This document shows, one piece after another, positions 13,352-59,060 of a DNA stretch of 64,000 nucleotides. The stretch is from IMG/VR virus record IMGVR_UViG_3300045988_080648; one strand, written 5' to 3'. The DNA is from a virus. The notes beneath the pieces are model-generated. The model had not been told where the DNA came from. It ran no database searches and saw nothing but the letters and a program-made list of their open reading frames with translations. Position numbers and translations under genes: made by a program. Numbering within the stretch: position 1 is the stretch's first letter; every line of letters starts with the position of its first letter.

Positions 13352-13425
13352 GGGGCGTCGGCTCAAGTGGTCAGCACCTGCTTTGCACGCAGGCATTCTT
13401 AGGAGTTCGAATCTCCTACGCTCCA
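13352..13425 (+). tRNA. tRNA-Ala (anticodon TGC)
   Basis: Acceptor GGGGCGT/ACGCTCC with the G3-U70 alanine identity pair. Anticodon arm CCTGC-TTTGCAC-GCAGG is identical to the E. coli tRNA-Ala arm. T arm AGGAG-TTCGAAT-CTCCT. Discriminator A. Confidence 0.75.
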
Positions 13426-13437
13426 CTATTAAACAAT

Positions 13438-13515
13438 GTGAGATTAGTGTAGTTGAAGGCGCACATCACACTTCCAATGTGAAGGCTTGCGTGGGTTTGA
13501 TTCCCACATCTCACA
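13438..13515 (+). tRNA. tRNA-Gly (anticodon TCC). 78 nt, slightly irregular, with extra nucleotides at the D/anticodon junction and in the variable region.
   Basis: Acceptor GTGAGAT/ATCTCAC (perfect 7 bp). Anticodon arm TCACA-CTTCCAA-TGTGA. T arm GTGGG-TTTGATT-CCCAC. Confidence 0.55.
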
Positions 13516-13914
13516 CTATGATAAAGCTCTAGAATACTAGTTACAGGAGCAACGTAACTTATAGGGTGCCTCTCAACGATGCATACTCGCCTATTAGGTG
13601 TCGTAGAACCTACGAACTGGAATGGTTTGATGTTTTTTGCATTCCTACAGAATCCTAAATAATAAAAATAGAGACCATGTCTCTGACAGGGACCATTCCT
13701 GGGATTCTTAATTTTTTAAACTCTCCTCCTAGATATTTTATAAGTTAAACTTTAAATTTGATTTATTATGATGAGAATTTTAAAAAGAACTTTAAAAGCA
13801 TTTAAGAAGGGTTGGATTTGGTATGTTACTCAGTATTCTAGATTATACATGCCTCCAATTATTTAATCTTATTATTTAATTTGTAAGTACCAAAGGGGTA
13901 CTTACTGATGTTCG

Positions 13915-35675: not shown

Positions 35676-37445
35676 ATGTTATTTATGGTAATAAAGAGAG
35701 ACGGAAGTAAAGAAGAATTTAACAGAAACAAAATTAGAGATGCTGTACTAAAGGCTTTTGGAGTTACTCAAAACTCTAGTAAGACAATGGATGAAGATAT
35801 TTACAGAGCAGTTACTGAGATAACTAATTCTGTAGTAGAGACTGAAGATCAATCTATTGAGGATATTCAAGATCAAATTGAAGAACTCTTAATGGATTTA
35901 GGATATTATAGCGTGGCTAAAAAATATATTCTATATCGTAAAGAACGTGAAGATATTAGAAATCATGCTACTAGGGATATTGAATTTATTCATAATTTTG
36001 TAAAATCTGATAATACTGCTAATGCTACTATTGATGATAATAGTAATGTAGGAACTAAAGGTATTGGAGTATTAAACGCTGAAATACATAAAGTCGATAA
36101 TAAACTTACTAATACAGAATGGTGGGAAAGTTTTGTAAAGAAGAGAGATCCTAACTTTAATATAAAAGTTATGAGGAATGACTTTAAAACTATTTTGTAT
36201 CCTCATGACTCATCTTCTCAAGTAGGAGAACCATATTGTATGGCAGCTTCTATGTATCCTTTCTTATTGTCTGGATTAGAGAAATTAGGAGGTAAATCAG
36301 CCGTCCCAAAGAACCTTGATTCATTCTGTGGTATTTATGTAAATCTAAATTTTGCATTAGCCTCTGAAATTAAAGGAGCAGTAGCTACTCCTGAGTTTCT
36401 GATGTATATGGATTATTTCTGTAGAAAAGAATGGGGAAATAATTATTATCTCAAACCAAGTGTAAAAATAACTACAGACTATTGTATAAAACAGAAAACT
36501 ATTGGTAGTCAAATTGATCAGTATTTCCAACAGGTAACCTATTCCATTAATCAAATAGCGGGATCTAGAGGAATGCAGTCTCCATTTACAAATTTTTCAT
36601 TCTTCGATAAATATTTCTTTGAAGGTATGTTTGGAGAATTTGTATTTCCAGACGGGACAAAGCCAGAGTGGAATTCTACTAATTGGTTACAAAAGCGTTA
36701 TTTACATTGGTTAAATCAAGAAAGATTAAAATGTATCTTAACATTTCCTGTATGTAGCTATGCTTGCTTAACAGATGAGGAAGGTAATTTTAAAGATTTA
36801 GATACTTTCAATTTTATATGCAGTGAATATGCTCAAGGAAATTCTTTCTTTACTTATCTATCTCGTAGTGTAGATAGCTTAAGTTCATGTTGCCGTTTAC
36901 AAAATGCAGTACAAGAAAATACATTTAATACTACTAATGGTCAAATAGGTGTAATGACTGGTAGTAAGAATGTAATCACTCTTAATTTAAATAGAATTAT
37001 TCAGGATTGGCAGCATACTTGGTCTGATTATAAAGACCATATTGATGTTAACACCAATAAGTGTTGTTTCCCAGTAGATTGGATTACACATAAAGACTTC
37101 CAAGAAGGAATTAAGAAATATCTAGAAAATATTCTTGAAAGAGTTTATTTGTATCAGTATGCTTATAACGACTTAATGCATTGGTGCAAAGACCATCATT
37201 TATATGCTGCTTATGATGCTGGTTTTATTAATCTTGATAAACAGTATTTAACTATTGGAATTAATGGCTTAAATCAAGCTGCTGAATACTTAGGAATGGA
37301 ATGTAATAATAATATTTATTATAAGACATTCTGTAGATTGATATTCAGCACTATAAAAGAACAGAATAAGAAACATAAAACTAAAACAGCTCAATTTAAT
37401 ACTGAACAAGTGCCTAGACGTGTGGGCACTATAAATCTCTTTTAA
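35676..37445 (+). CDS. nrdD: anaerobic ribonucleoside-triphosphate reductase NrdD, exon 1. It has an ATP-cone at the N-terminus (VIKRDGSKEEFNRNKIRDAVLKAFG). The 3' boundary is uncertain because the ORF reads into intron 1 until the TAA at 37443-37445.
   Basis: ORF track. ATP-cone signature. The continuation with a Zn-ribbon is in exons 2 and 3. Confidence 0.7.
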   Translation: MLFMVIKRDGSKEEFNRNKIRDAVLKAFGVTQNSSKTMDEDIYRAVTEITNSVVETEDQSIEDIQDQIEELLMDLGYYSVAKKYILYRKEREDIRNHATRDIEFIHNFVKSDNTANATIDDNSNVGTKGIGVLNAEIHKVDNKLTNTEWWESFVKKRDPNFNIKVMRNDFKTILYPHDSSSQVGEPYCMAASMYPFLLSGLEKLGGKSAVPKNLDSFCGIYVNLNFALASEIKGAVATPEFLMYMDYFCRKEWGNNYYLKPSVKITTDYCIKQKTIGSQIDQYFQQVTYSINQIAGSRGMQSPFTNFSFFDKYFFEGMFGEFVFPDGTKPEWNSTNWLQKRYLHWLNQERLKCILTFPVCSYACLTDEEGNFKDLDTFNFICSEYAQGNSFFTYLSRSVDSLSSCCRLQNAVQENTFNTTNGQIGVMTGSKNVITLNLNRIIQDWQHTWSDYKDHIDVNTNKCCFPVDWITHKDFQEGIKKYLENILERVYLYQYAYNDLMHWCKDHHLYAAYDAGFINLDKQYLTIGINGLNQAAEYLGMECNNNIYYKTFCRLIFSTIKEQNKKHKTKTAQFNTEQVPRRVGTINLF

Positions 37446-37753
37446 TTGACTCGAAACTCCTTAAATTAAGGACAACGAGGGGCAAGCAATAATTATTATA
37501 ATTATGGGCAGCCTGAGAGACTAAATAAAGAGAATTTTAAATAAATTTATTTAAAATATGCAATAGTCCGAACTCTATGGTAACATAGAGAGAGAAAATC
37601 GAAGAATTTTCTCCGTTAATAATATAATATACAAAATAATTTTGATTCCTAAGAATTATTTTACAAATATAGTTCATAAAGATTTATATTATATTATTAA
37701 TCATCCTTCGCCAATAGAGGAATTAAATAAAATATTAGAAATTCCTTCTATAG
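37431..37753 (+). mobile_element. ORF-less group I-type intron 1 in nrdD. Boundaries are approximate (plus or minus 40 nt). The proposed omega-G is the G of TAG at 37753.
   Basis: The coding potential is lost for about 320 nt between two nrdD reading-frame segments. It contains AGTCCGAAC / TATGGTAACATAGAG blocks that also occur in the polA introns at 57517 and 58843. Confidence 0.45.
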
Positions 37754-38159
37754 AAGGAGCGTAACAGAATGGCAGAAAGCGCTTCAGTAAAACTTTATAA
37801 TAGAGATAAAGCTGATGGTTATTGGATTCCTACAGATACTAATCTGTATGCTAGTTATATATTTAAACCTAATGATACACATATAAGTATACTTGATAAA
37901 ATTATACTTCATAGTTCTGAGTTCGCTGCTGATGAATTAGATGGAGGTTCTGCTTGTCATCTTAATTTATCTGAACATTTAAGTCAGAAACAATATGAGT
38001 ATTTACTTAAATTTATGGCTAAAGTAGGTTGTAAATATGTTACTTTTAATATTCCTAATTGTGAATGTGATGAGTGTCATTTTATAGCAAAACAGCCATT
38101 TAGTAAATGTCCTAAATGTGGTAGTACTCATGTAAGTCTATGGGATAGGATTATTGGGT
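37754..38159 (+). CDS. nrdD: NrdD exon 2 (Zn-ribbon CECDEC...CPKCG; ends ...LWDRIIG plus the first T of the glycyl-radical Tyr codon)
   Basis: ORF track 37769-38161, with the frame open from 37754. Splicing at 38159 and 39215 restores RIIGY. Confidence 0.6.
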
Positions 38160-39214
38160 GAATATAAACGCCCCACATAATAGTAATATTATGTAGTAAA
38201 CGCAGAATATGCTGGAAACCCCTTAGAGCCTAAGTATACTTGAAATATTTTCAAGGATGAACAAGTCTTAGGATTGGGCAATCAGCAGACATATAAATTG
38301 TTAATTTATGTTAAAGTGTTAAGATTTATACAAGTCTTGTATATACTTAACATATATAAAATTTATGGGTCTCAGAGACTACCAATGCGCAACCTATGGG
38401 TTGATAGTATAGTCCACTCCCTTATTATTAACATAATTATTTAACAATATGAGAAAAATAACAGAAGAACGCTTTTGTGAAGTATGTGGAGTATCATCAA
38501 AATTTAAAAAAGTTAGTTTTAATAAACTTTCTGGAAAAATACTATGTGAAAAACATAGGGAACAATTTAGAAGATTTGGGGAATTTAAAGATACTAATTC
38601 AAGAGGAGTATTTGATGATAATGAAATTAGATTAAAAGATAATTTTGCGGAAATAGATACTTATGATTCCCATGGAAATATTATGGAAACATTTATTCTA
38701 GATATAGATGATGTTCCAAAATTAAAGGGTCATAAATGGAGAACTGTTTATAAAAATAATAAACCTTATTTATTTACAGGAAACCAGAAAAAAGAACGTA
38801 TCTATTTTCATAGGTTGGTACTTCCTACTGATAAACAAGTTGACCATATTAGTGGAGATACTCATGATAATAGAAAATGTAATCTTAGAGAAGTAACTAT
38901 TCAAGAAAATATGTTAAACCTACAAAAGAAATCTAATAATACTTCGGGTATTCGAGGTGTATCTTTTGATAAAAAACGGAATAGGTGGAAAACTGATTTT
39001 ACTTTTCAGAAACAACGTTATTATTTAATGAATAGAGACTTAAAAGAAGAAGCCGTTTATCAAAGGTATCTTTGTGAGAAATTAGTATTAAAAAATTTTC
39101 GGAATGATGCTCTATATAATTCTTATATTGATAAAATTTCAGAGGAACGTAAAGCTGAAATAAAAGAATATGTTATTAATAAATTAAATATCTCGAAAGA
39201 GAGGGTATAAAAGG
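38160..39214 (+). mobile_element. group I-type intron 2 in nrdD (about 1055 nt) carrying an HNH-AP2 homing endonuclease gene. The 5' exon ends in T and the intron ends in G.
   Basis: A GC-richer structured 5' part (AAACGCCCCACATAA...) is followed by the HEG. The exon 2 / exon 3 junction reconstitutes the glycyl-radical motif RIIGY. Confidence 0.55.
38449..39210 (+). CDS. intron-encoded HNH homing endonuclease with a C-terminal AP2 DNA-binding domain
   Basis: ORF track. HNH motif VDHISGDTHDNRKCNLREVTIQENM. AP2-like SGIRGVSFDKKRNRWKTDFTFQKQRYY. Confidence 0.7.
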   Translation: MRKITEERFCEVCGVSSKFKKVSFNKLSGKILCEKHREQFRRFGEFKDTNSRGVFDDNEIRLKDNFAEIDTYDSHGNIMETFILDIDDVPKLKGHKWRTVYKNNKPYLFTGNQKKERIYFHRLVLPTDKQVDHISGDTHDNRKCNLREVTIQENMLNLQKKSNNTSGIRGVSFDKKRNRWKTDFTFQKQRYYLMNRDLKEEAVYQRYLCEKLVLKNFRNDALYNSYIDKISEERKAEIKEYVINKLNISKERV

Positions 39215-43522: not shown

Positions 43523-43792
43523 ATGAAAATTTCATACCAATATCTTACAACAGATGAATTAGATGTAAGTATTAAAGATATATTTGATTATATAAAATTC
43601 TTACATACTGATTCAGATATGTCTATTAAGTCTCCTCTATCTTATGTGGAAGAATGGGAGTTAAATAAAGAAGAAATTATCCAAGCTTTATATGGTACTC
43701 AAGTATATGAGGAAGTTTGTCCACGTTTTTATAGAACACTAGAAGAAAAGTTATTACCTTATTTAAAACGTGCTGATGGAGAACCCTCTTAG
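43523..43792 (+). CDS. hypothetical protein (89 aa)
   Basis: ORF track. Confidence 0.4.
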   Translation: MKISYQYLTTDELDVSIKDIFDYIKFLHTDSDMSIKSPLSYVEEWELNKEEIIQALYGTQVYEEVCPRFYRTLEEKLLPYLKRADGEPS

Positions 43793-44186
43793 AACATGGT
43801 GGAAGGTTAGGAAATGGTTTAAAATTCCTAAACCTTCCATTTATTTTGGACACATAATATCAGGGCTACCTTGTAGACTTCCTAATAAATGGATTAAGTT
43901 ATATAGTTATGACGTTACTTGGAAAGATAAATATGATAGTCCTAGATTTGAATTTGTTCCTCAAATAAATTTAGAATTATTTAAGATATATCAGTTATTA
44001 TTAACTTTTCAAACTAATAATAATGATATATATTGGGAGACAATCTTAGATATAATTTATTATAATAAATCTCTTAAAGAAGCTATAAATAAAAATACTT
44101 GGGAGAATTATAATAAAGAAAAAATAAACGCTTTTACTAAGGGATTTCTTACTCCTAAAGGAGAAAGATTATATTTATATGAGTAA
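43770..44186 (+). CDS. hypothetical protein (138 aa)
   Basis: ORF track. Confidence 0.45.
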   Translation: MLMENPLRTWWKVRKWFKIPKPSIYFGHIISGLPCRLPNKWIKLYSYDVTWKDKYDSPRFEFVPQINLELFKIYQLLLTFQTNNNDIYWETILDIIYYNKSLKEAINKNTWENYNKEKINAFTKGFLTPKGERLYLYE

Positions 44187-44418
44187 TGAATTAAATTATA
44201 TAGATAATTTCGATGGGTCTCCAGAAAGACCTAATATGATAGATAATCCTTTTGTAAAAGGAAATAATTGGTTAAGATTTATTGAAGAAGAGAAACAGAT
44301 AACATTAGGAGAGGAGCAATTACAAGTATTGCATGATATAGTTGATATTATATTAAATAATTTCAAACAAAAGGACTTTTTAAATCCTATAAATTTAGGA
44401 GGAGCTGCTGGTTGTGGT
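44179..44418 (+). CDS. Dda/RecD-like SF1 helicase, exon 1. It ends inside Walker A: ...INLGGAAGCG then the intron.
   Basis: ORF track 44179-44424. Walker A is completed by exon 2 (GCG|KS). Confidence 0.55.
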
Positions 44419-45909
44419 AATTAATAAAAATACTCTATTATAAAATATCTTTTAAAAAATTTTGATTTATAGGTGGGCATATATAATAGCTATACATAAA
44501 ATGTATAGTAAAATGAGTAAAATTACAGTACCTGAATCAGATTTAATTCTTATAAAAAAATATTATGAGGAAGATAATAAAAAAGTATCAGAGATAGTAA
44601 GATTATTAAATAATAAATATTCTTCCGGAGTAATTATTACTAGATTAAAAAATCTAGGAATATATCAAAGTACTAGAGGTAAAATACCAGATAATATTGG
44701 TAATAATATTATAGCAGAATATAATAAGGGCAATAGTATAGTAAGTTTGTCTAAACAATTTGGATATTCTACTACTAAAATATCTACATATTTAAAAAAT
44801 AATGATATTATTGTTATAAATAGACAAAATATTATAAATTATGATTTGGATAAAGATATTATACCCTTATATAATCAAGGATATAGCCTTACTAAATTAG
44901 CCGAGATATTTCATACTAATAGAAATAATTTAGCTAAAAAATTAAAAGCTAGAGGAATTGAAATAATCAATCATCAAAATGAAACTAAATTTAATGAACA
45001 TATCTTCGATGTTATAGATACAGAAGATAAGGCTTATTGGTTAGGTTTTATATTTGCTGATGGTTATATTGACAGTAGTCCTTTAGAAAAAAATAAAAAA
45101 TCTAGATACGGTTTTGAAATATCTTTAAAAGGTTCTGATGCTGAGCATCTACATAAATTTAATGAATTTATGGGTCATAATAAAGATAATGTAAAAATTG
45201 GTTATGTAAATTGTAATGGTAAACGTTGTGTTAGATGTAGATGGTATGTAGCGAATAAACACTTATGGAATACCTTAAATAGTCTAGGATGTACTCCTAG
45301 AAAAAGTTTAACACTAAAATTTCCAGAAAAAAGAATTTTTCAAGATATTTCTCTTATAAGACATTTTATTAGAGGATACTTTGATGGTGATGGATGTTTA
45401 AGTTATTGTAAAAGTATTAAAACTTTTTCTCCAATTTGTACATTTTTAGGTACTAAAGAATTTTTATAGGTACTATGTAGTTATTGTGAATTACTAACAG
45501 ATAGAACTATAAATCATAAAAGTAATGAAAATGTATATGAGGTATCTTGTACTCACAATATAGCCAGTAAATTATTACATTATTTATATGATGATGCAAA
45601 TATTTATTTACAAAGAAAATATAATAGAGCAATATTTTTATGGAATGGTTGCCGGTCACTTGAGAAATTAAGTGAATTTTTACAAACCAATATCGGTGAA
45701 GGCTGTGATGCTAATACCGAGATAACTACAGAAACTAAAGAGTCTGTAGCATCGTAGAGCGTAGAACTTGAACCTGAGAAATCAGAATAAAATAGTTCCA
45801 AGAGTGGTTTGCCCTCAGCACATAAAGGTGGAGGTGAATATGTACGCCGAGCTATAGCAAATAAGAAACTATAGAAATACAGATAAAAAGCTGTATGATA
45901 ACAAAACTG
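44419..45909 (+). mobile_element. group I-type intron (about 1.49 kb) in the Dda-like helicase, carrying a LAGLIDADG homing endonuclease gene. The 5' exon ends in T and the intron ends in G (45909).
   Basis: Splicing joins LGGAAGCG to KSLCTSFLLEWINTKGFPVKLCAPTHKAA (Walker A plus motif Ia). The 3' intron blocks are shared with the introns at 21921-22036 and 48510-48625. Confidence 0.6.
44462..45469 (+). CDS. intron-encoded LAGLIDADG homing endonuclease (two LAGLIDADG motifs: LGFIFADGYI and GYFDGDGCL). It ends at an in-frame TAG, and the same frame stays open to 45757 with homologous C-terminal sequence. It may therefore be decaying or need read-through.
   Basis: ORF track. The post-TAG continuation VLCSYCELLTDRTINHKSNENVYEVSCTHNIASKLLHYLYDDANIYLQRKYNRAIF... 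aligns with the C-terminus of the LAGLIDADG protein at 56423. Confidence 0.6.
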   Translation: MIYRWAYIIAIHKMYSKMSKITVPESDLILIKKYYEEDNKKVSEIVRLLNNKYSSGVIITRLKNLGIYQSTRGKIPDNIGNNIIAEYNKGNSIVSLSKQFGYSTTKISTYLKNNDIIVINRQNIINYDLDKDIIPLYNQGYSLTKLAEIFHTNRNNLAKKLKARGIEIINHQNETKFNEHIFDVIDTEDKAYWLGFIFADGYIDSSPLEKNKKSRYGFEISLKGSDAEHLHKFNEFMGHNKDNVKIGYVNCNGKRCVRCRWYVANKHLWNTLNSLGCTPRKSLTLKFPEKRIFQDISLIRHFIRGYFDGDGCLSYCKSIKTFSPICTFLGTKEFL

Positions 45910-47139
45910 AAGTCGCTTTGCACTAGCTTCCTTTTAGAGTGGATAAATACCAAAGGCTTCCCAGTTAAGTTATGTGCTCCTACTCATAAAGCAGCTTTAG
46001 TACTTAAAAAGTATAATAATTACGATGCAACTACTCTTCATAGTATGTTAGCATTATCTCCTAAAGTAGATATTCTTAAACTGGATATCAGAGAATTAAG
46101 ATTCTTTGCTACTAATGATAAAAAAATGTCTATACCATATGATGGAATTGTCATTTGTGATGAAGCATCTATGGTAAGTAGTGATTTATATGATTTATTA
46201 GTAGAAAAATGTAGCTTAATGGGTACTATGATTATCTTTTGTGATGATTATGCTCAGTTAAACCCAGTGAAAGAAGATGAACAATCAAAAGTCTTTAGAT
46301 GTAAACATCAATTTAGATTGACTAAAATATACAGACAATCTGAAAAAAGTGGTCTTAAAGGCATTTTACAGACGCTTAGAGAGTCTCCAATACAACAGTG
46401 GGATAACTGTGAAGGTGAGGATGGAAGTCTCTTTGTAGAGTCTAAATTAGAAAATTTTTGTAGAAAAGCAGTTTCGGAATTTAAATACGAGATAGAAGCT
46501 AAGGATATATTACATACTAAAATTCTAGCTTATACTAATGCTCGTGTAAATAACTATAATAAAGCTATTCATAAACTTTTATGGAATGATAATAATTTTC
46601 TTCATAAAGGAGAAATTTTAATGGCTTATGAGAATTTCAAAAAAGATGGTTATGAAATAACTAATTCTATGGATTATATAGTAGAGGAATTTACTCCTAC
46701 TATTATTGATGTTCCATATTATACTAAGTGTAAAGGATACTTAGTTAAACTATATGATGAATATAATAACATATCTTTTGAAATTCCACTATTAGCTCCA
46801 GAAGAATGTAATGAAGATTTAGCTATAGTTATAGAAACTATAAGAACTGAAGCAATAAATTCTCAAGGATACGATAGAAAAAAGAAGTGGGGAATATATT
46901 ATGCTTTAATGGGAAGTTTTTGTACATCTAAAGATCTATTTACTGATGGTAGATGTATAAGAAAAGCTACTTTTAAATACGGATATGCTATTACTACTCA
47001 TCGTTCTCAAGGGTCTTCTTATGATAATGTATTTATAGATATGAAAGATATCTTTAGAGCTAAAGATAAAGAGACTCTTAGGCAATTACAATATGTAAGT
47101 ATGTCTAGAACTAGAAGCGATATAACTATGCTATTATGA
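45910..47139 (+). CDS. Dda/RecD-like SF1 helicase, exon 2 (motif Ia LCAPTHKAA, Walker B IVICDEASMV, C-terminal motif TTHRSQGSSYDNVFID)
   Basis: ORF track 45895-47139, trimmed to the splice acceptor. Confidence 0.65.
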   Translation, partial: KSLCTSFLLEWINTKGFPVKLCAPTHKAALVLKKYNNYDATTLHSMLALSPKVDILKLDIRELRFFATNDKKMSIPYDGIVICDEASMVSSDLYDLLVEKCSLMGTMIIFCDDYAQLNPVKEDEQSKVFRCKHQFRLTKIYRQSEKSGLKGILQTLRESPIQQWDNCEGEDGSLFVESKLENFCRKAVSEFKYEIEAKDILHTKILAYTNARVNNYNKAIHKLLWNDNNFLHKGEILMAYENFKKDGYEITNSMDYIVEEFTPTIIDVPYYTKCKGYLVKLYDEYNNISFEIPLLAPEECNEDLAIVIETIRTEAINSQGYDRKKKWGIYYALMGSFCTSKDLFTDGRCIRKATFKYGYAITTHRSQGSSYDNVFIDMKDIFRAKDKETLRQLQYVSMSRTRSDITMLL

Positions 47140-47405
47140 TTGATGTATTATTGATTCATAATAATCCAGCATTAGTAGAATTGTTTAAAAACTCCTATAA
47201 TGGAGAAGCTTTTTTACAATTCTTAGATAGAGGTTCTAAAGTAGAACGTAGTAAAGCTTATAAGATACAGCAAGAATGGGGTAGTAGTCAAACCCCATTT
47301 GCACTAGTGAAAAAAGATGATAAGGTTATTAAAGCCTTTTATGCAGAAGATAAAAACAATGTAATTTCTAAATTAATATCTTATTTAAATGAGCACAATT
47401 ATTAA
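47136..47405 (+). CDS. hypothetical protein (89 aa)
   Basis: ORF track. Confidence 0.45.
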
Positions 47406-47691
47406 TGTTCCAGTAATTAACAATTCTAAAAATCCACTTCCTAAGTATGAAACAACTGAAGCTGCTGGTATGGATTTACGAGCTAGTTTAACTAATCTTT
47501 CCCCTAAATTTTTATTTAATGCTTATATAGAAAGTGGTAAAGTAATCATTGAGCCTAGAGGTAGAGCATTAATTCCTACAGATTTACATATGTCTATCCC
47601 AGAAGGTTATGAACTACAGATTAGACCAAGAAGTGGACTGGCATTAAAATATGGTATTACAGTATTGAATACTCCTGGAACTATTGACGCT
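47389..47691 (+). CDS. dut: dUTPase, exon 1 (ends ...LNTPGTIDA inside motif III)
   Basis: ORF track 47389-47706. dUTPase motifs AAGMDLRA and [10 protein letters not shown]. Confidence 0.65.
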
Positions 47692-48625
47692 GAAAAATAT
47701 TTTTAAAATTCCTTGGGACAATCGATAAAATAGCTATATTATAAAATATAATTATCAGATAATTTTATTAATTAATAATTATAATATAGTTATGAGTGAA
47801 TGTAAATATTGTAAAAAAGAATTTATTCCAAATGAGTCTGCTAGACAATTTCCTAAAACATTTTGTTCTTATTCTTGTTATGAACATTGGTTGAAAGAAA
47901 ATAAAGAACCAAATTGTGTATGTGCTTATTGTAAAATTCCTATGTATAGAAAGCCTTCCCAAATTAAAAGAGCTGTGCATGGAGTAACTTGCTCTAAAGA
48001 GTGTGCTAATAAATTAAAAGCTATTTATTATTCTGGAAAAGGTAATCCTCAATATGGATTAATAGGAGATAAAAATGCTTCATTTAAAGGTATAGAAATA
48101 CTAAGTAATTATGGGTATATTCTTGAGTATGCCCCAAATCATCCTTTTCCTCATAATAAAAGCGTAAAGGGTACTAGAGTGCTTCAACATAGATTAATAA
48201 TAGAGCGAAATGCTGATAAATTTGATGATAAGTATTTCATAATCATAAATAATAAGAAATATTTAAAATTAGAATATGAAGTACATCATAAAAACGAAAT
48301 TAAAACAGATAATCGCTTAGAAAATTTACAAATAGTAACAGCTAATGAACATAGGAAAATTCATAATAATACTAAGAAAATTATAAGAGATGAAAAAGGT
48401 CAAATAATCGGCGTCAAAAAATCGGACAAAATCGGGGAAGGCTGTGATGCTAATCCCGAGCTAACTAATTAAATTACGAAAGGTTAATTAGTAGTGTAAC
48501 GCATAGTAGTTGAATAAATATAATACTACCACGAGTGCCCGACACTTATGTGAAAAGATATGCTGAACTATAGCAAATAAGAAGCTATAGAACTATAGGA
48601 TAAAAAGCCTATAGGGTAACAAATG
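47692..48625 (+). mobile_element. group I-type intron in dut (about 930 nt) carrying an HNH endonuclease gene. The 5' exon ends in T and the intron ends in G.
   Basis: Splicing restores motif III as [15 protein letters not shown]. Confidence 0.6.
47792..48472 (+). CDS. intron-encoded HNH endonuclease (Cys-rich Zn-binding N-terminus; HNH motif EVHHKNEIKTDNRLENLQIVTANEHRKIH)
   Basis: ORF track. HNH motif. Confidence 0.65.
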   Translation: MSECKYCKKEFIPNESARQFPKTFCSYSCYEHWLKENKEPNCVCAYCKIPMYRKPSQIKRAVHGVTCSKECANKLKAIYYSGKGNPQYGLIGDKNASFKGIEILSNYGYILEYAPNHPFPHNKSVKGTRVLQHRLIIERNADKFDDKYFIIINNKKYLKLEYEVHHKNEIKTDNRLENLQIVTANEHRKIHNNTKKIIRDEKGQIIGVKKSDKIGEGCDANPELTN

Positions 48626-48811
48626 GATTATACAGGAAATATAGGAATTATTCTCATAAATCATGGAGAAAAACCGTTTATGGTAGAAAATGGAGACAGA
48701 ATTGCACAAGGAGTATTTGCTAAAATAGTTAATGCTGAATTTCAGTCAGTAGATTCTTTAGAAAAAACTGAAAGAGGTGATGGAGGTTTTGGACATACTG
48801 ATGTAAAATGA
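48626..48811 (+). CDS. dut: dUTPase, exon 2 ([28 protein letters not shown]...)
   Basis: ORF track 48623-48811 minus the ATG that belongs to the intron 3' end. Confidence 0.6.
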
Positions 48812-49263
48812 TAAGTAAAAAATCTTTTTTAGAGAAATTAAGAGTATTAGGTAATCAATACGCTAATAACATAGTACTTAATTCTAAGAATAAAGATGCT
48901 AAAGATATTATAATATCTGATTACTTACAAGGAGCATCAGATTCTTATGCTACTTTCAGAACTTATGATAAAAAAAGATTTTGTGATTCCTTAAGAGATA
49001 TTTTACATTATCAGAGAGAACTAAATAAACTCGAAGATACCTTAGGTTGTGAAATATGTGAATCATCTATATGTGAGTCTGTAACTTTTATTATAACTAG
49101 TTTAATAAGAGCTTTAGCTAATGATGATTCTGAAACTAGGGATGATATTGAATGGTGGCTATATGAAGATGTAGAAAAAGAATGGGTTATAGATGGAGAA
49201 CTTGTAAAAGTAGAAACTCCTGAACAATTTTATGATGCTTTAAAGAAATTGAATCGTGTCTGA
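48808..49263 (+). CDS. hypothetical protein (151 aa)
   Basis: ORF track. Confidence 0.45.
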
Positions 49264-50586: not shown

Positions 50587-51795
50587 ATGACAAAAAAGGA
50601 AAAATTTATTACTCAATCAATTGAAAAATTTGGTGACAAATTTGATTATTCTAAAGTAACAGATATTAATAATAAAGAAATAGATAAAATTACAATTATA
50701 TGTCCTATACATGGTGAATTTGAGACTACTCCTAAATCATTTTTAATATCTAAATATGGTTGTAAAAAATGTGCTAACCAACAAAAAGGAAAACATTATC
50801 GAACAGATAAAAATAATTTAAGTTCTGTTGATACACATATCCCACATATAGAAAATCCTATTATATCAAAATCTTTAGTTGTGGGTACTGTATACTGTTT
50901 TATTAATAGTATTAATGGTAAAAAATATATTGGAGAAACAGTAAAGAAAGATTATACTGTTAGATTTAATGAACATAGAAGTAAAAGTGAAAGAGGAGTA
51001 GTAACTTATTTCTATAATGCTATCCGAAAATATGGATGGGATGCTTTTAATAAATATATCATATATCAAACTGAACCATATGAAGATACTGAGGAGAATA
51101 GAAAAAAATTAAATGATATTGTAAATAAAAAAGAAATTGAGTTTATTAATAAATACAATACTACAAATCCTAATTTTGGCTATAATTTAACAAAAGGAGG
51201 AGACGGAGTTTTAGGTTACCATTTTTCTAAAGAAACCAAAGAAAAAATGAGTAAATCTCATCAAGGAGAAAAACATTGGAATTATGGTAAAAGAAATGAA
51301 GGTAAATCTAGAGCAATTTTACAATTTGATTTAGATGGAAATTATATAGCAGAGTTCCCATCTATGGCAGAAATTACACGACAATTAGGATATAAAGCTA
51401 ATAATGTATGCAGATGTTGTGATAATTTAATAGGTTCTTATATGGGATATATTTGGGTACGAAAAGATGATTATTATGAAGGCTATATTCAAAAATACAA
51501 ATCAAGAGTAAAATGTAAATCTAATGATAAGGAAGTTTTACAATATACTTTTTTAGGAGATTATGTAGCTTCCTATATAAGCTGTGCAGAAGCAAAAAGA
51601 ACTTTAAAAATGGGATATAGCCCTTCAGGAGCTGCCTCTGGAACTGATTTTTCAGCAGGAGGTTATATATGGATATATAAAAAAGATTTTACAGAAGATT
51701 TATTAAAAGAAAAATTAGAGCTTGTAAAAAGTAGTCGTAATTATAAAAAAATTGTGAGTAATCTTAGACAGGCAGCTTTAATTAATCGTAATTAA
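50587..51795 (+). CDS. free-standing GIY-YIG homing endonuclease (GIY-YIG core VYCFINSINGKKYIGET ... YFYNAIRKYG; NUMOD3-like repeats KEKMSKSHQGEKHW)
   Basis: ORF track. GIY-YIG and NUMOD motifs. Confidence 0.65.
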   Translation: MTKKEKFITQSIEKFGDKFDYSKVTDINNKEIDKITIICPIHGEFETTPKSFLISKYGCKKCANQQKGKHYRTDKNNLSSVDTHIPHIENPIISKSLVVGTVYCFINSINGKKYIGETVKKDYTVRFNEHRSKSERGVVTYFYNAIRKYGWDAFNKYIIYQTEPYEDTEENRKKLNDIVNKKEIEFINKYNTTNPNFGYNLTKGGDGVLGYHFSKETKEKMSKSHQGEKHWNYGKRNEGKSRAILQFDLDGNYIAEFPSMAEITRQLGYKANNVCRCCDNLIGSYMGYIWVRKDDYYEGYIQKYKSRVKCKSNDKEVLQYTFLGDYVASYISCAEAKRTLKMGYSPSGAASGTDFSAGGYIWIYKKDFTEDLLKEKLELVKSSRNYKKIVSNLRQAALINRN

Positions 51796-53449: not shown

Positions 53450-53793
53450 TGATTTATTTTATTATAGAGGATTCTCATTTTGGCTCTCATGTAGAACAAA
53501 TATCTACTGACTTTAATAAATTACGGGAAAATTTTCCTGATAAAGTAATCTATACTACAGATTATATGAATGTAGATGATACTTTATATAATATAGTAGA
53601 TTATTCTAATATGCCGTATAAACCTTATGATGGTACTGAAATAACTAATTGTTACTTATATCGTAATAATTTTTATGAGTGTGATGAAGATTTGCCAGAA
53701 GAATTAGATCCAGATGAATATATGTGTACCTATTATAGAACTTACACAAAAGGTTCTCTAACTTCAACATGGCATAAAGATGGCTGGGAATAA
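53449..53793 (+). CDS. hypothetical protein (114 aa)
   Basis: ORF track. Confidence 0.45.
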   Translation: MIYFIIEDSHFGSHVEQISTDFNKLRENFPDKVIYTTDYMNVDDTLYNIVDYSNMPYKPYDGTEITNCYLYRNNFYECDEDLPEELDPDEYMCTYYRTYTKGSLTSTWHKDGWE

Positions 53794-54604
53794 TTTAATT
53801 ACAGACGATAGTGAAGCACTACAAGCTTATCTAAATAACATTACTTATTCTACCCCATTATCTTTAGAGGAAGAGAAAGAATGTGCTGATACTGGAAATT
53901 GGGAGAAATTAGTAAATGCTAATTTAAAGTTTGTAGTAACTGTAGCTAAAAAGTTTCAGAATAAAGGATTACCTTTATCTGATTTAATAGCTGAAGGAAA
54001 TATAGGTCTTATTCATGCTAGCCATTTATATAAAAGTGAGTATAATGTTAAATTTATAACTTATGCTGTATGGCATATAAGTGAAGCTATTCGTAGAGCT
54101 ATTCATTATAAAGCAGATACTGTTAGAGTTCCTGTAAGTCAAAAGCTTACTTATAATAAGGCTGCTAAAGTTATAAATAAATACTGGCAAACTGAAGATA
54201 GACCTCCATCAGATGATGAATTAGAGGAAGCTACTGGTAAAACCATGAAACAAATTAATGGAGCTATAAATGCTAAAAAAATATGTATGTCTTTAGATAC
54301 TCCATTAGGTAGTAATGGTGATGATGATGATTCTACTTTAGTAGATATTGTTAAAAATAATAATAGTCCTCTAGCAGATAATAATATAGAACAAGCTTAT
54401 AAGACTAATGTCATTAACAAAGTTTTAAATGGACTTTCTAATAAAGAACATGACATAATAATTTTATGCTATGGATTTACTGGGCAAGAATACACTCCTG
54501 AACTTATATCTCCTTTATTTGGATGTACGCCAGAACGTATTAGACAAATTAGGAAAGAAGCAATCAAAAAACTTAGAAAAAGAAAAATTCTTAAAAACAT
54601 TTAA
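53780..54604 (+). CDS. sigma-70 family RNA polymerase sigma factor (region 2 LVNANLKFVVTVAKKF...DLIAEGNIGLIHA; region 4 near the C-terminus)
   Basis: ORF track. Conserved sigma-70 region 2.1-2.4 pattern. Confidence 0.65.
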   Translation: MAGNNLITDDSEALQAYLNNITYSTPLSLEEEKECADTGNWEKLVNANLKFVVTVAKKFQNKGLPLSDLIAEGNIGLIHASHLYKSEYNVKFITYAVWHISEAIRRAIHYKADTVRVPVSQKLTYNKAAKVINKYWQTEDRPPSDDELEEATGKTMKQINGAINAKKICMSLDTPLGSNGDDDDSTLVDIVKNNNSPLADNNIEQAYKTNVINKVLNGLSNKEHDIIILCYGFTGQEYTPELISPLFGCTPERIRQIRKEAIKKLRKRKILKNI

Positions 54605-55825
54605 ATGATTTATTTAGTTACCAAGGTTAAAGCTTTATTCAAATCTTCTAAATATGAATGTATTTCTGTAGAAAAAAGTAAAGAAATTATTAATTCTATG
54701 AAAAAAATTAGAGGATTAGATACTGAGACTATGGGATTAAATCCTCATACTAAAGCATTATTAACAGTTCAGATAGGTACTAAAGAAAATCAAGTAGTAA
54801 TTGATTGCACTACTATAAATATTTGGGAATATAAAGATATATTAGAAGATTCCAATATTTTATATATCTTAGCTAATGCTAAATTTGATATCCAATTCTT
54901 CTTTAAACATAACATTATATTATCTAAAGTATGGGATGTAATGTTAGCTGAAAAGATTAGATATTTAGGATATCCTAAAGGTAGTTTCCATGCTGACTTA
55001 AAGACCCTTGAATACAAATACCTTAATAAATATATGGATAAAACTGTTCGAGGTAAAATTACTAAAGTTGGTCTAACTGAAGAAGTAATAGTTTATGCAG
55101 CTAATGATGTAGTAGATTTGGAAGATTTAATGAATGCCCAAATAAAAGCTTTAGAAAAAGAAGAGTTGGTAAAGGCAGTACAATTAGAGAATAGATTTGT
55201 TATTCCATTAGCTTATATGGAATGGTGTGGAGTAAAATTAGACGTAAAAAAATGGAAAGCTAAAATGGTAAAAGATGCTAAACGTTTAAAGATTGCTCTA
55301 ACTAAATTAAATGATTGGGTAGTAAAACATTATGGAAAAGACTCTAGATTTACTAAAGTAGATTTACAAGGAGATTTATTTTTAGGATTTAATACTGACC
55401 CACAGTGTGCTATAAATTGGAATAGTGCAGCTCAAGTAATTCCATTATTCAAAGCTATTGGAATAAATACTTCTACTATAGATAGTAAAACAAGGAAATT
55501 AAAAGATTCTGTAGATGCTAAATTATTAGAGCCTCAGGCTAAGGATTTTGAAATTCTTCCTATTTATCTAGATTATAAAGAAGCTCAAAAAGTATGCTCT
55601 ACTTATGGACAAAACTGGCTAGACCAAATAAATCCTGAAACTGGTAGAATATATACTAAATTTAATCAGTTAGGCACTAATACTGCCAGAATATCTAGTG
55701 GTGGAAAAGATAAAAATGCTCAAATAGAATATGTAAATTTTCTTAATCTTCCAGCAGATCCAGAAACTAGAAGTTGTTTTATCGCAGAGAAAGGTAACTC
55801 TTGGATTTCCATAGACTACTCGGGT
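54605..55825 (+). CDS. polA: family-A DNA polymerase, exon 1 (3'-5' exonuclease motifs LDTETMGL, ANAKFDIQFF, YAANDV; polymerase motif TGRIYTKFNQLGTNTARISS; ends in motif A ...ISIDYSG)
   Basis: ORF track 54605-55834, trimmed to the inferred splice donor. Confidence 0.65.
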
Positions 55826-56146
55826 AAAAAATAAACATATAAACTATAACATTTTTATAGTATATTTTGAATAATCTATCCGTAAATAAATCAGAGGATG
55901 TGTTAAAAATGTTTTATAGTTTATATCATAATGCTCATTATTTTCTAAAAAGAAAATATGAAAAATTTGGCCCCCTTGTAAGGAAACTTACAGGTGAAAA
56001 CCTCGTAAATTCAGTTAATGAACGGGCATTATCAAAGACTGAGCCAAGCCTTATAATAAAGGAAGGTGCAGAGACTAGAAACGAGGAGCCTAAAATAAAT
56101 GATTAAATTTATCATGGCTGAGGTATAGTCCAGCGTGTTTACGTAG
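55826..56146 (+). mobile_element. group I-type intron 1 in polA (about 320 nt). It contains only a 79-aa ORF (55867-56106) with no recognisable endonuclease motif. The 5' exon ends in T and the intron ends in G (the G of TAG).
   Basis: Splicing joins DYSG to QESFIMASISNDKALIHELMEGSGDLHSLTA, which is motif A and its continuation. Confidence 0.5.
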
Positions 56147-56343
56147 CAAGAAAGTTTCATTATGGCTTCTATCTCTAATGATAAAGCTTTAATACATGAA
56201 TTAATGGAAGGAAGTGGAGATCTACATTCTCTAACTGCCTATATGAGTTATCCTGATCAAATACCTAGAGATACAAAAATAACAGAAATTAAAGAAAAGT
56301 ATCACCATCTTAGACAAGAAGCCAAAGGAATAGAATTTGCCAT
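56147..56343 (+). CDS. polA: polA exon 2 (motif B region ...RQEAKGIEFAI)
   Basis: ORF track 56162-56353, with boundaries re-set from the splice-site reasoning. Confidence 0.5.
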
Positions 56344-57606
56344 TAATCCTTAAATTATTGCAATTTTTATTTTGATATAATTCGCTATAAACTATATTAC
56401 TATTAATAAATATTTTAGTAATATGGATATAGAAAAAGAATTAAAAATCAAAAGCTTGTATGAAAAAGATACAAAGATTAGTGAAATTTTAAAGATTTGT
56501 AAATGTAGTAGTGCTACAGTAAATAAAGTAAGAGAAAAATATAATTTACCTAAAAGAAGGAATTCCCCCTCAAAGATTCCTATAAATGAATCTTTAGTAG
56601 TAAAATTATATACCGAAGGAGTAATATTAACTGAAATTACAAAAACTTGTCATTGCAGTACCAACACTGTCTCAGCAATACTAGATAAATATAATATTCC
56701 AAAACGTTCTCAGAGAATAAATAAAAAACCTAATAAGGATTTAAGTAAATTTATGGATTTAACTTCTCCAGAAACTCAATATTGGATAGGATTTATATGT
56801 GCCGATGGCAATATAAATTATAATCCAGAAAAAAGAGCTTATAAAGTTTCTCTATTTAGTAAGGATGAAGAAGTCATAATTAAATTTATAAAATATTTTG
56901 GAGAAAATACAGTTTGTAGAAGTGACAGACCTACAGGTATAAAAGAAGCCTATATATGCTCTAAAGAACTTTGTGAATATTTTATTAATGTATTAAATAT
57001 TACTCCTAATAAGTCTCTTACATTAAATCCTAATATTGAGTATACTAACAATTTTATTTTAGGCTATTTTGATGGAGACGGAAGCATTAGAAACAGTTCA
57101 GAAAAACAAATTAGATACGAGTGTAATATTACTTGTGCTAGTAAAATATTTTTGGATAAAATAAAAACTATACTTGATAAAAATGGTATTTATTCTATTA
57201 TTTATCAACATACTGATTGTAATGCTTACAAAATTAGAATAGATAGAAAAAGTGAATCTGAAAAATTTTATCATTTTTTATACAAAGATGCAGTAGTTTG
57301 TTTATCAAGAAAATTGAAAAACTTTGTGGCACTCTATGGAAACATAGAGAATGAAAAATTGGGTGAATTGCAGGAACTTAAGGAAAATCTGCAGCCAAGC
57401 CAACCTTTAACAAAGTTGGAAGGTTCAACGACTAACTCTTGAAACTTCGTAAGAAGAATATAATAGAGACACGAGTGCCCAACACCTAAACTATAAAGCA
57501 AGGTGATGAAATAGTCTAGCCTATATGGTAACATATAGAGTCTCAGATAAAGAGCTGAGAGTTAATACAAGCGAAATTATGGTGGTGATTTTAACACTAT
57601 TCATCG
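56344..57606 (+). mobile_element. group I-type intron 2 in polA (about 1.26 kb) carrying a LAGLIDADG endonuclease gene. The 5' exon ends in T and the intron ends in G (57606).
   Basis: Splicing yields EFAINKGISIEEAKKIYENYMSGFSGLAKYQEY, the canonical motif B plus downstream helix. The 3' part contains ACACGAGTGCCCAACAC and TATGGTAACATATAGAG blocks shared with other introns. Confidence 0.5.
56423..57442 (+). CDS. intron-encoded LAGLIDADG homing endonuclease (motifs IGFICADGNI and GYFDGDGSI)
   Basis: ORF track. Confidence 0.7.
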   Translation: MDIEKELKIKSLYEKDTKISEILKICKCSSATVNKVREKYNLPKRRNSPSKIPINESLVVKLYTEGVILTEITKTCHCSTNTVSAILDKYNIPKRSQRINKKPNKDLSKFMDLTSPETQYWIGFICADGNINYNPEKRAYKVSLFSKDEEVIIKFIKYFGENTVCRSDRPTGIKEAYICSKELCEYFINVLNITPNKSLTLNPNIEYTNNFILGYFDGDGSIRNSSEKQIRYECNITCASKIFLDKIKTILDKNGIYSIIYQHTDCNAYKIRIDRKSESEKFYHFLYKDAVVCLSRKLKNFVALYGNIENEKLGELQELKENLQPSQPLTKLEGSTTNS

Positions 57607-58042
57607 AAACAAAGGTATCTCTATAGAAGAAGCTAAAAAAATATATGAAAATTATATGTCTGGTTTTTCAGGATTAGCTAAATATCAAGAGTATTGTAGA
57701 AAGATAGTGATGGAAAAAGGCTATATACTTTTAAATCCTATAAGCAAATATAGAGCACATATATATGACTTTGAATCTCTACGTTCAATGCAAGAAAAAA
57801 TGCAAGATAGGGAATTTTGGAAGTATTATAGAGAAATGAAACGAGAATCTCCTAACTGTGATACAGTACAAGAAGTACGAGATTTCTTTAAGAAAAAAGG
57901 TGAATGTGAAAGGAATAGTATAAATTATAGAATACAACACACTGGAGCTTTATGTTATAAAGTAAGTATGATTTATTTCTTTAAATGGATAGTAGAAAAT
58001 AATCTTTTTAATAAGGTTTTAATTACTATTACTCCCTACGAT
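57607..58042 (+). CDS. polA: polA exon 3 (GYILLNP...ERNSINYRIQHTGA...; ends ...ITITPYD immediately before the Glu of motif C)
   Basis: ORF track 57656-58048, with the frame open from 57590. Confidence 0.5.
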
Positions 58043-58898
58043 AAATAATCTTGTCGTAGTAAAACGATGTTAATTGCTTGGAACTCCTAAAGATTTAATT
58101 ACTAAATTATTGAAATAATAAACTAGTAAAAATATTAAATATGATTTTACCTCAGTTAAAAGAAATGGACAATAAGCAGCTTTATAATTTTACAAGAGAA
58201 CAAACTCAAGTATTTTTAACAGGATTGCTAGGTGATGGATGTATATCCACTACAAATAGTGGTAGTTATATTTATACCACAAATTGTAAACATCTTGAAT
58301 ATTTAGAATTTAAAAAGAAATTATTAGGTAAAGGAAATATTAAACTTCAAAAAAGAAATGGCTATCCTATATATACTATGTATGGAGGAGCTTACCCAGA
58401 ATTATATGAGTTTAAAGAATTTACTGTTCAAGATGTTATTGAAAACTTAGATTTACTTGGGTTAGCATTATGGTTTTATGATGATGGCAGCCTTCATAAA
58501 AGAGATTTATATTATAATTTAAATACTCAAAAGTTCCCAAAATATATACAAGAAGGAATTTTTATTCCATGGTTTAATTCCTTAGGCATTAAAGCTAATT
58601 TAAGACATGATACAAAAAGAGGAAAAGAATTGTATTATTTAGGAATTAATAAATATGAAGGAGCTAATATTATTAGTGAAATACTATCACGTTATCCATT
58701 AGATTGTTACTCTTATAAATTATGGAGTTCAGAGACTATCCTTAAATGGAGTAAGCTGCAAGAGCAGGTGAAAAGCATCGATGAAAATCTTACTAATAGG
58801 CAGTTAGCTTATAAGTGGAGATTTTTATAAGATATAGTCCGAACCTATATGAAAGTATAGGAGAATATATGGAATCGATATATTCGTAACAATATATG
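58043..58898 (+). mobile_element. group I-type intron 3 in polA (about 856 nt) carrying a LAGLIDADG endonuclease gene. The 5' exon ends in T and the intron ends in the G of ATG (58898).
   Basis: Splicing yields ...VLITITPYDEINCEVPIEIAEKV..., which aligns to motif C LLQVHDELVLEVP with Tyr in place of His. It contains the ATAGTCCGAACCTATATGAAAGTATAGG block. Confidence 0.5.
58141..58830 (+). CDS. intron-encoded LAGLIDADG homing endonuclease (motifs LTGLLGDGCIS and LWFYDDGSL)
   Basis: ORF track. Confidence 0.65.
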   Translation: MILPQLKEMDNKQLYNFTREQTQVFLTGLLGDGCISTTNSGSYIYTTNCKHLEYLEFKKKLLGKGNIKLQKRNGYPIYTMYGGAYPELYEFKEFTVQDVIENLDLLGLALWFYDDGSLHKRDLYYNLNTQKFPKYIQEGIFIPWFNSLGIKANLRHDTKRGKELYYLGINKYEGANIISEILSRYPLDCYSYKLWSSETILKWSKLQEQVKSIDENLTNRQLAYKWRFL

Positions 58899-59060
58899 GA
58901 GATTAATTGCGAAGTACCTATAGAAATAGCTGAAAAAGTGGCTACTAGACTTCATGCTATTATGGTTAGAGCAGGAGAAATATTTTGTACTAGATGTAAG
59001 TTGGATGCAGATATTTCTAGATGTAAAGATGGAACATTACCTAATTATTGGATTCATTAA
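58899..59060 (+). CDS. polA: polA exon 4 (EINCEVPIEIAEKVATRLHAIMVRAGEIFCTRCKLDADISRCKDGTLPNYWIH; C-terminal pol-A tail)
   Basis: Hand translation. It aligns to the family-A polymerase C-terminus (EVP...VPL.VD...G.NW..H). Confidence 0.5.
   Translation, partial: EINCEVPIEIAEKVATRLHAIMVRAGEIFCTRCKLDADISRCKDGTLPNYWIH

Follow-up and report, generated by a model that had tools for sequence, protein, structure and literature searches.

Group I introns with homing endonuclease genes are an already known kind of element in the conserved codons of phage replication genes. Introns of subgroup IA2 have been described in family-A DNA polymerase genes at three sites (E. coli Pol I numbering), namely, 674 in the phages SPO1, SP82, Bastille, and Pf-WMP3, 676 in phage phiL7, and 881 in the T7-like phages PhiI and W31 (PMC3428280). 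In crAss-like phages, Yutin et al. 2021 reported dense group I introns in core genes (major capsid protein, PolB, primase, and others), recognised by their endonuclease domains (PMC7886860). Here, a locus of this kind is described in a 64,000-nucleotide (nt) stretch of viral DNA, IMG/VR record IMGVR_UViG_3300045988_080648, which as a whole is called the window below. Positions 54605-59060 of its plus strand hold four collinear open reading frame (ORF) pieces of one family-A DNA polymerase gene, polA. The region is very probably one essential polymerase of 682 residues, split by three mobile group I introns, one per catalytic motif. The gene structure is far beyond chance and does not overturn current understanding; it would be a clean natural example of homing elements at all three catalytic motifs of one enzyme.

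Like the systems of PMC3428280, the locus has self-splicing-type group I introns with homing endonuclease genes in critical conserved codons of a phage polA, although splicing is here a prediction. In E. coli Pol I numbering, the insertion sites are ~708/709 in motif A (DYSG↓QE, the arrow marking the junction), ~764 in motif B (within the Ile codon of FAI-NYG), and 882/883 in motif C (PYD↓E). The last one is within a codon or two of site 881 of PhiI and W31, and the intron inserted there has the P7.1 and P7.2 hairpins typical of subgroup IA, like the IA2 phage introns. The motif A and motif B sites, in contrast, are not among the three sites of PMC3428280. Unlike the polymerase genes described there, the gene under study carries three introns at once; the endonucleases are of the LAGLIDADG rather than the HNH type, and their reading frames, instead of being in P6a, occupy the P1 loop in introns 1 and 2 and, in intron 3, a position upstream of J6/7 that extends into the core. 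The phages of Yutin et al. are likewise gut phages in which core replication genes are split by group I introns with LAGLIDADG or other endonucleases, and they share with the window a Crassvirales-related polymerase and a high intron density, several more endonuclease ORFs being found beside split genes in the window. PMC7886860 does not describe introns of polA; their insertion sites, RNA structures, and exact junctions can be given here.

The window is AT-rich (~28% G+C). Its best DNA match (96%) is MT835492.1, an unannotated scaffold of an unclassified human-gut phage, and weaker matches belong to the Crassvirales family Steigviridae. The source would be a phage of the human gut with a polymerase that groups with the crAss-like ones (Steigviridae), as judged by the polymerase and the intron cores only. 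The polymerases of crAss001 (gp64, YP_009910804) and IAS virus (YP_009981771) are ~60% identical to the window enzyme over the C-terminal 208 residues (tblastn) and share with it the domain order, motifs A and B, and the motif C sequence PYDEINCE, but their genes are uninterrupted and lack all three introns.

When the four pieces are joined, they make a protein that matches Pfam families PF00476 (168.1 bits, cut-off 34.3) and PF01612 (71.1 bits, cut-off 23.6), with an N-terminal 3′-5′ exonuclease domain followed by the polymerase domain. The pieces are separated by three stop-filled inserts, in each of which the exon frame is closed within 1-3 codons, while the exons together amount to 2049 nt, that is, 682 codons and a stop. 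Exon 1 ends in the first half of motif A, ...WISIDYSG, with U55825 as its last base. Exon 2 continues with QESFIMASIS... and runs from the second half of motif A to the middle of motif B (...RQEAKGIEFA plus AU), its last base, U56343, lying within the codon for the Ile that corresponds to residue 764 of E. coli Pol I. Exon 3 stretches from (I)NYGGDFNTIHRNKGISIEEAKK... to ...VLITITPYD and ends at U58042, right behind the Asp codon of motif C; exon 4 supplies the second half of this motif and the C-terminus (EINCEVPIEIAEK...LPNYWIH and the stop codon). In the 682-residue product, motif A (DYSxxE) reads DYSGQE, motif B (RxxAKxxxFxxxYG) reads RQEAKGIEFAINYG, and the carboxylates of motif C (DE) are retained as YDE. 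The best matches in the PDB are Taq, Klenow, and Bst Pol I, and the alignment shows that the Arg equivalent to Klenow R668 is retained as well, in NTARISS.

The exon boundaries could be placed as listed in Table 1 because relatives with uninterrupted genes are available. The scaffold MT835492.1 (locus L001), with 96% identical DNA, is without introns 1 and 2 and continuous across both sites, where it reads ...WISIDYSGQESFIMASIS... and ...RQLAKKIEFGFNYGGDFNTIHRNLGISIEEAKK..., respectively. In the protein-database search, P0001 (a cluster of 2573 members) is 682 residues long, uninterrupted at all three sites, and 97% identical over 100% of the spliced query. Finally, the polymerases of crAss001 (gp64) and IAS virus run through the site of junction 3 without a break (TPYDEINCEAP; ...VLI(T/C)VTPYDEINCEAP...). 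A preliminary description of the locus, made from the letters alone, had proposed four exons of a family-A polymerase, three introns, and two LAGLIDADG genes, all of which stand, although the remnant of a third endonuclease gene in intron 1 was overlooked. Its junctions 1 (exon 1 ending at U55825, the intron at G56146, DYSG↓QE) and 3 (exon 3 ending at U58042, the intron at G58898, PYD↓E) agree with the uninterrupted homologs. Junction 2 had been set at ~57607 as EFAI↓NKGISIEEAKK, which is 33 nt too far downstream: the uninterrupted alleles read ...EF(A/G)(I/F)NYGGDFNTIHRN(K/L)GISIEEAKK and keep NYGGDFNTIHR, and the true 3′ splice site of intron 2 is between G57573 and A57574. The product therefore has 682 residues and not the ~671 proposed at first, the shorter one having lost 11 residues that include the YG of motif B.

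All three junctions have a U at position -1 and a terminal G of the intron (G56146, G57573, G58898), and this G is conserved in all relatives despite varying preceding bases. Within the range over which junction 2 can slide, the rules for the 5′ U and the terminal G are both satisfied only by ...GCCAU↓...GCG↓AAAUUAUGG, and an independent carrier of intron 2, L006, has the 3′ end ...UCG↓AAAUUAUGG. The predicted ligated exons read ...UCGGGU↓CAAGAA..., ...GCCAU↓AAAUUAUGG..., and ...UACGAU↓GAGAUU.... It had also been remarked that in two of the introns the terminal G belongs to an in-frame ATG or TAG. This is true of the window (TAG in intron 1, ATG in intron 3), but it is a coincidence because the introns of relatives end in CTG, TTG, GTG, CAG, or AAG.

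By a P1 helix with a U•G pair, the terminal G, the Rfam match, and covariation, all three inserts are assigned to the group I introns. The Rfam matches come from scans of 0.4-3.3 kb pieces of the window, in which RF00028 recognises intron 2 at 57293-57538 (79.5 bits, above the gathering score of 50), intron 1 at 55950-56146 (40 bits, E 5.9e-9, with G56146 as the last matched base), and intron 3 at 58720-58861 (31.1 bits, E 2.4e-5). The internal guide sequences of all three introns are given in Table 1; the GGGU/GCCC pairing of intron 1 was read by hand and not taken from the minimum-free-energy fold, and the guide sequence of intron 2 is conserved in L006. In the intron 1 family, made up of diverged relatives in polA and other genes found by a motif scan, 23 of the 52 predicted pairs are compensatory. 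RNAalifold with five members of the intron 2 family (from the window, from L006, and from the thyX genes of cr111_1, Kehishuvirus 'tikkala', and Kolpuevirus 'frurule') recovers P6, the long-range P7, P7.1/7.2, P8, P9, and P9.1 (16/41 pairs compensatory), and with eight diverged variants of the intron 3 family it gives 27 compensatory pairs out of 56. P1 of intron 3 is paired 7/7 in 13/13 sequence variants with compensatory changes, and P3 is paired 5/5 in 13/13 variants despite seven different 5′-strand sequences; both were counted with an anchored script, MAFFT having misregistered the 5′ exon of three His-type relatives. In the phage cr128_1 (L005), a compensatory change is found in P10 of intron 3 too. 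As a candidate for P4-P6 of this intron, a 7-bp helix GAACUCC/GGAGUUC enclosing the ORF was tried and rejected, as it is unsupported in L005, L007, and L016.

Table 1. Features of the interrupted polA locus (positions are those of the window)
Feature	Position	Strand	Remarks
Exon 1 of polA	54605..55825	+	3′-5′ exonuclease and N-terminal part of polymerase domain; ORF, colinear with intron-less L001 and P0001; PF01612, PF00476
Intron 1, 321 nt	55826..56146	+	Without intact endonuclease gene; absent from L001 and P0001; 97% identical in L011
ORF of intron 1, 79 residues	55867..56106	+	C-terminal remnant of a helix-turn-helix (HTH)-LAGLIDADG homing endonuclease; overlaps guide sequence through P3′
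Internal guide sequence of intron 1, UUUG-GCCC	55966..55973	+	GCCC pairs with GGGU of exon 1 (P1, U•G at splice site); UUG pairs with CAA of exon 2 (P10)
Exon 2 of polA	56147..56343	+	Aligned to L001, P0001, P0002
Intron 2, 1230 nt	56344..57573	+	Absent from L001 and P0001; 87% identical, same site, in L006
Homing endonuclease gene of intron 2, 339 residues	56423..57442	+	Two N-terminal helix-turn-helix repeats and double-motif LAGLIDADG domain
Internal guide sequence of intron 2, UUU-GUGGCA	57323..57331	+	GUGGCA pairs with UGCCAU of exon 2 (6 bp, U•G at splice site); UUU pairs with AAA of exon 3 (P10)
Catalytic core of intron 2, P3 to P9.1, and 3′ tail	57359..57573	+	Rfam alignment; P7 GACUA (57430-57434) with UAGUC (57512-57516)
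Exon 3 of polA	57574..58042	+	Aligned to intron-less L001, P0001, P0002, crAss001, IAS virus
TAC codon (Tyr628) replacing the usual His of motif C	58037..58039	+	Aligns with Taq His784 = Klenow His881 (PDB alignment, Taq ...VHDE...)
Intron 3, 856 nt	58043..58898	+	Subgroup IA-like extra hairpins P7.1, P7.2; absent from crAss001, IAS virus, P0001, P0002
Internal guide sequence of intron 3, AAUCUU-GUCGUAG	58047..58059	+	GUCGUAG pairs with CUACGAU of exon 3 (7-bp P1 including Tyr codon); AAUCUU pairs with GAGAUU of exon 4 (P10)
P3 5′ strand of intron 3, CGAUG	58065..58069	+	Pairs with P3′ CAUCG
Homing endonuclease gene of intron 3, 229 residues	58141..58830	+	LAGLIDADG_2 type; PF03161 34.8 bits (cut-off 25, E 2e-8)
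3′ core of intron 3	58728..58885	+	J6/7-P7 58728-58738; P7.1 58739-58750; P7.2 58755-58768; P3′ CAUCG 58777-58781
3′ core of intron 3, continued	58783..58885	+	P8 58783-58826; J8/7-P7′ 58829-58840; P9 58844-58861; P9.1 58863-58885
Exon 4 of polA	58899..59060	+	Colinear with crAss001 gp64, IAS virus, P0001

Once transcribed, each intron would fold into a ribozyme with its guide sequence base-paired on one side to the 4-7 nt that close the upstream exon (P1, with the U•G pair) and on the other to the 3-6 nt that open the downstream exon (P10). A guanosine-initiated transesterification and a subsequent attack at the terminal G would then excise the intron and restore the reading frame.

Introns 2 and 3 contain endonuclease genes that are apparently intact. 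The intron 2 ORF matches PF14528 (58.5 bits, cut-off 22.5, E 8e-16), PF13384 (30.1 bits), and PF00961 and bears the LAGLIDADG motifs WIGFICADGNI and ILGYFDGDGSI; it is situated in the P1 loop, which separates the 5′ splice site from the guide sequence, and extends with its last ~40 codons over this guide and P2-P7. L006 has a 326-residue ortholog. In the intron 3 ORF, the motifs are LTGLLGDGCI and ALWFYDDGSL, the C-terminal ~35 codons (WSSETILKWSKLQEQVKS...) overlap J6/7, P7, P7.1, P7.2, P3′, and P8, and orthologs of 229-256 residues are present in eight family members. The remnant in intron 1 has no Pfam match when taken alone, but it aligns at 57% identity (E 1e-21) with residues 280-351 of a 352-residue HTH-LAGLIDADG endonuclease in L057, which sits in a homologous intron at the same polA site and is only distantly related to the intron 2 endonuclease (25% identity). 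As the remnant matches only the last ~75 residues of the L057 protein, intron 1 is considered a deletion derivative; in L011, the frame is broken by a 1-nt indel. Like that of intron 2, the ORF of intron 1 is located in the P1 loop, and the C-terminal codons of the ORF overlap helices of the ribozyme core in all three introns. A conserved C-terminal peptide of the intron 3 endonucleases, WSSETI(Q/L)KWSKLQE, is encoded by J6/7-P7-P7.1-P7.2 (58728-58830; homologs L005-L053), a stretch constrained both as RNA and as protein, with DNA nearly invariant across diverged copies.

Each of the three introns is present in some relatives and absent in others. Carriers of intron 1 are exemplified by P0031 (a cluster of 770 members), whose ORF ends in DYSGKK before a stop codon; in the same manner, the ORF of P0015 ends in ...AINSLKLLQFYF, just past FAIN, as expected of an intron 2 carrier, and those of P0006 and P0007 end in TPYDK, marking carriers of intron 3. 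This last intron is present in L001, L011, cr128_1, and L007-L009, and an 18-nt motif of its core occurs in 39 IMG/VR contigs, at the D↓E site of polA motif C wherever the flanking exons could be read. The intron-less target sequence is LAKKIEFGFNYGG in the P0001/L001 type versus EAKGIEFAINYGG in the window type. The 99 exon mismatches between the window and L001 are distributed unevenly: the intervals of ±30 nt around junctions 1 and 2 hold 11 and 17 of them, respectively, against a background of 0.048 per nt (binomial P 7e-8 for ±60 nt around junction 2), and there is no excess at junction 3, the intron being present in both genomes. Such clustering at junctions 1 and 2 is the pattern that co-conversion in endonuclease-initiated homing would be expected to leave. 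The endonucleases of introns 2 and 3 presumably cut intron-less alleles at co-infection, and the intron with the flanking exon would then be copied in; intron 1, which has only the last ~75 endonuclease codons left, would depend on inheritance or rescue in trans. An intact endonuclease, an endonuclease-deleted intron, and an empty site would thereby represent life-cycle stages in one population. A 155-kb viral contig (L038, IMGVR_UViG_3300045988_075347) bears two members of the intron 1 family ~640 nt apart, one at DYSG↓QE of polA and the other in a different sequence context, together with the motif-C intron.

Several observations weigh against this picture of the gene. Junction 2 can be slid by up to 4 nt and junction 1 by 1 nt with the protein unchanged, so the exact junction nucleotides rest on the rule of the U and the terminal G and on the P1/P10 pairings. 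The RF00028 gathering threshold of 50 bits is not reached by introns 1 and 3, and Rfam scans of the whole window, in gathering and E-value modes alike, returned four tRNAs and none of the three introns, which is ascribed to speed filters. P7 is invariant in all three intron families and hence gives no covariation signal, and no assignment of the P4-P6 domain of intron 3 was found by hand. As to mobility, the clustering of mismatches could instead reflect selection for endonuclease-resistant target sites.

Other readings of the inserts have to be judged against the same data. They might not be spliced at all, so that the locus would be a decaying pseudogene or a source of separate polypeptides, with the endonuclease ORFs as free-standing insertions. 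Exon 4 can indeed be read as an ATG-initiated ORF of its own (58896-59060), and the public annotation of cr128_1 treats the pieces as separate coding sequences; nevertheless, this is very unlikely, since the exons are in perfect register with the intron-less orthologs (no frameshifts, 97% amino-acid identity), motifs A, B, and C would each be halved without splicing, the inserts hold conserved ribozyme cores with many compensatory changes and guide sequences that track the flanking exons, and the ATG ahead of exon 4 is not conserved in relatives. LAGLIDADG domains also occur in inteins, and phages have been reported to contain inteins (PMC7886860) and, more recently, group II introns (PMC12350094). 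Protein splicing in frame is impossible here because a stop codon comes 1-3 codons behind each exon and the endonuclease ORFs use different frames and start codons of their own; moreover, an ORF for a reverse transcriptase/maturase is absent, and the Rfam scans of the pieces gave no match to group II introns, RF00028 being the only family with significant E-values (7.5e-20 to 2.4e-5), intron 2 alone being above the gathering score. The chance that the inserts are of either kind is close to nil. Exon 3 beginning at ~57607, and with it a 671-residue polymerase, is a reading that can be credited only in an extreme case: the site has a G before and AAA after it and thus fits the terminal-G rule and permits the same 3-bp P10, but it does so by chance, as the 11 residues NYGG(D)(F/Y/A)NTI(H)(R/Q/K) that it drops are kept in every uninterrupted allele (L001, P0001-P0005, P0008, crAss001, IAS virus) and include the Y-G of motif B (RxxAKxxxFxxxYG), the intron 2 carrier L006 shares the upstream 3′ end, and the length of the intron-less homolog, 682 residues, is exactly that of the model with the splice at 57574. 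The preferred account is still a gene with three group I introns and junction 2 at 57574.

The same gene model bears on the Tyr in motif C, where the PYDE of the window had raised the suspicion of a sequencing error at the TAC codon or of an artefact of the junction. His is near-universal at this site in family A: every one of the 67 matches in the PDB is a family-A polymerase, the Taq chain has VHDE in the alignment, and among 113 more distant representatives of 50% clusters, 106 have His and 7 have Tyr (PYDE in 3, IYDE in 2, VYDE in 2). Nonetheless, PYDE is found in 115/115 close homologs that cover the motif, from many independent assemblies. It had been envisaged that homologs might show the His with another junction, but the contiguous intron-less genes of the cultured crAss001 and of IAS virus read PYDE, and no CAY-GAY is present near either splice site, so HDE is not obtainable from any alternative junction. 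The guide sequence of intron 3 points the same way: GUCGUAG of the window is Watson-Crick complementary to CUACGAU and pairs the UAC, whereas relatives with His have GUCGUGU, GUCGUGA, or GUUGUGC opposite CAC and GUCAUGG opposite CAU. Because this guide lies within the window itself, a sequencing error is excluded, and a true enzyme with HDE hidden by an assembly error or a wrong junction has a negligible probability. The TAC is genuine, and, as far as the homologs reveal, Tyr in motif C is a fixed trait of the polymerase lineage rather than an artefact. The occurrence of PYDE, IYDE, and VYDE among the distant representatives indicates that Tyr in place of His is found in more than one cluster of this polymerase group.

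The enzyme thus has Tyr628 in place of the His that precedes the motif-C Asp (Klenow His881). It is known that His881 belongs to a conserved Arg-His-Asp network and is conserved but not catalytic, with a ~10-fold loss of kcat on its mutation versus ~400-fold on mutation of Asp882 (PMC11122685). Family-A membership therefore stands, and a functional Tyr variant of motif C is plausible. A literature search on Tyr in motif C gave nothing relevant, the His881 kinetics being all that could be cited. With PYDE fixed in a clade that includes the cultured model phage crAss001, nature may have set up an experiment on the Arg-His-Asp network of family-A polymerases. It is tempting to ask if the substitution might be a consequence of the motif-C intron or its endonuclease and not of neutral drift. 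The His/Tyr codon is 4-6 nt from the insertion site of intron 3, is part of P1, and almost certainly is inside the LAGLIDADG recognition sequence. A change of CAC to TAC could have spread as an endonuclease-resistant target allele, or it could have hitch-hiked with the intron by co-conversion, followed by re-adaptation of the guide sequence. In His lineages that carry the intron, the His is kept and the guide sequence is adapted to it. No direct support was found for an origin through the intron, and we regard it as improbable. If true, it would mean that a selfish element drove the replacement of an almost invariant active-site residue in an essential replicase and that a similar change recurred in other lineages with IYDE or VYDE.

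The junctions give what should be the correct 682-residue polymerase for this phage lineage. Public records are mis-annotated for the DNA polymerase I of cr128_1 (RefSeq) and probably for the thyX genes of two isolates and of the metagenome-assembled cr111_1. In cr128_1 (NC_055885.1; positions are those of locus L005), the 'DNA polymerase I' coding sequence 2501-4471 stops at ...TPYDK because intron 3 is unannotated; the 'hypothetical protein' at 4564-5262 represents the LAGLIDADG gene, and exon 4 seems to be located shortly ahead of the coding sequence 5393-5647 or where this begins. The case of thyX concerns relatives of intron 2. The gene is annotated as two coding sequences with an ORF between them in cr111_1 (locus L012, 1682-2678), Kehishuvirus 'tikkala' (locus L013, 2436-2821), and Kolpuevirus 'frurule' (locus L014, 2433-2824), and the P6-P7 core of intron 2 is 90-92% identical to these regions over 61-89 nt, the P6-P9.1 region aligning with compensatory changes. 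It is likely, from this homology, that the gaps hold unannotated group I introns. They differ from intron 2 in the host gene, in the position of the ORF (within P5 or P7.1/7.2, not in the P1 loop), and in the endonuclease types. The 79.5-bit match to intron 2, lost in the 64-kb Rfam scan, is recovered in pieces of ~3 kb or less, and surveys of introns in AT-rich phage genomes with default settings will under-count them.

Further endonuclease-type ORFs are scattered over the replication module (44462-45469, 45895-47139, 47792-48472, the region of 48626, and 50587-51795). They comprise a weak LAGLIDADG-like ORF before a fragment of an SF1 helicase, an HNH ORF beside a dUTPase-like sequence, and a NUMOD1/NUMOD3 ORF after a DNA ligase, which suggests further introns or free-standing homing genes; an Rfam scan of 43600-48900 detected no group I core. 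A large reductase-like gene is seemingly split into at least two ORFs (35676-37445, 37769-38161) and, by a reading of its translation, appears to encode an anaerobic ribonucleotide reductase. At 38373-38420, there are strings resembling P7 and J8/7 of group I introns, CAGAGACUA ... GUAUAGUCC, followed by a 253-residue ORF (38449-39210) that resembles an HNH-type endonuclease, with no match in an Rfam scan of 37700-38800. Four tRNA genes, none of them a suppressor, are located at 12391-13516 (Asn-GTT, Thr-TGT, Ala-TGC, Gly-TCC). Immediately upstream of polA, a sigma-70-like ORF of 274 residues with Pfam regions 2, 3, and 4 (53780-54604, plus strand) reaches as far as the start codon of polA, and the pairing of the sigma and polA genes is conserved in L006-L011.

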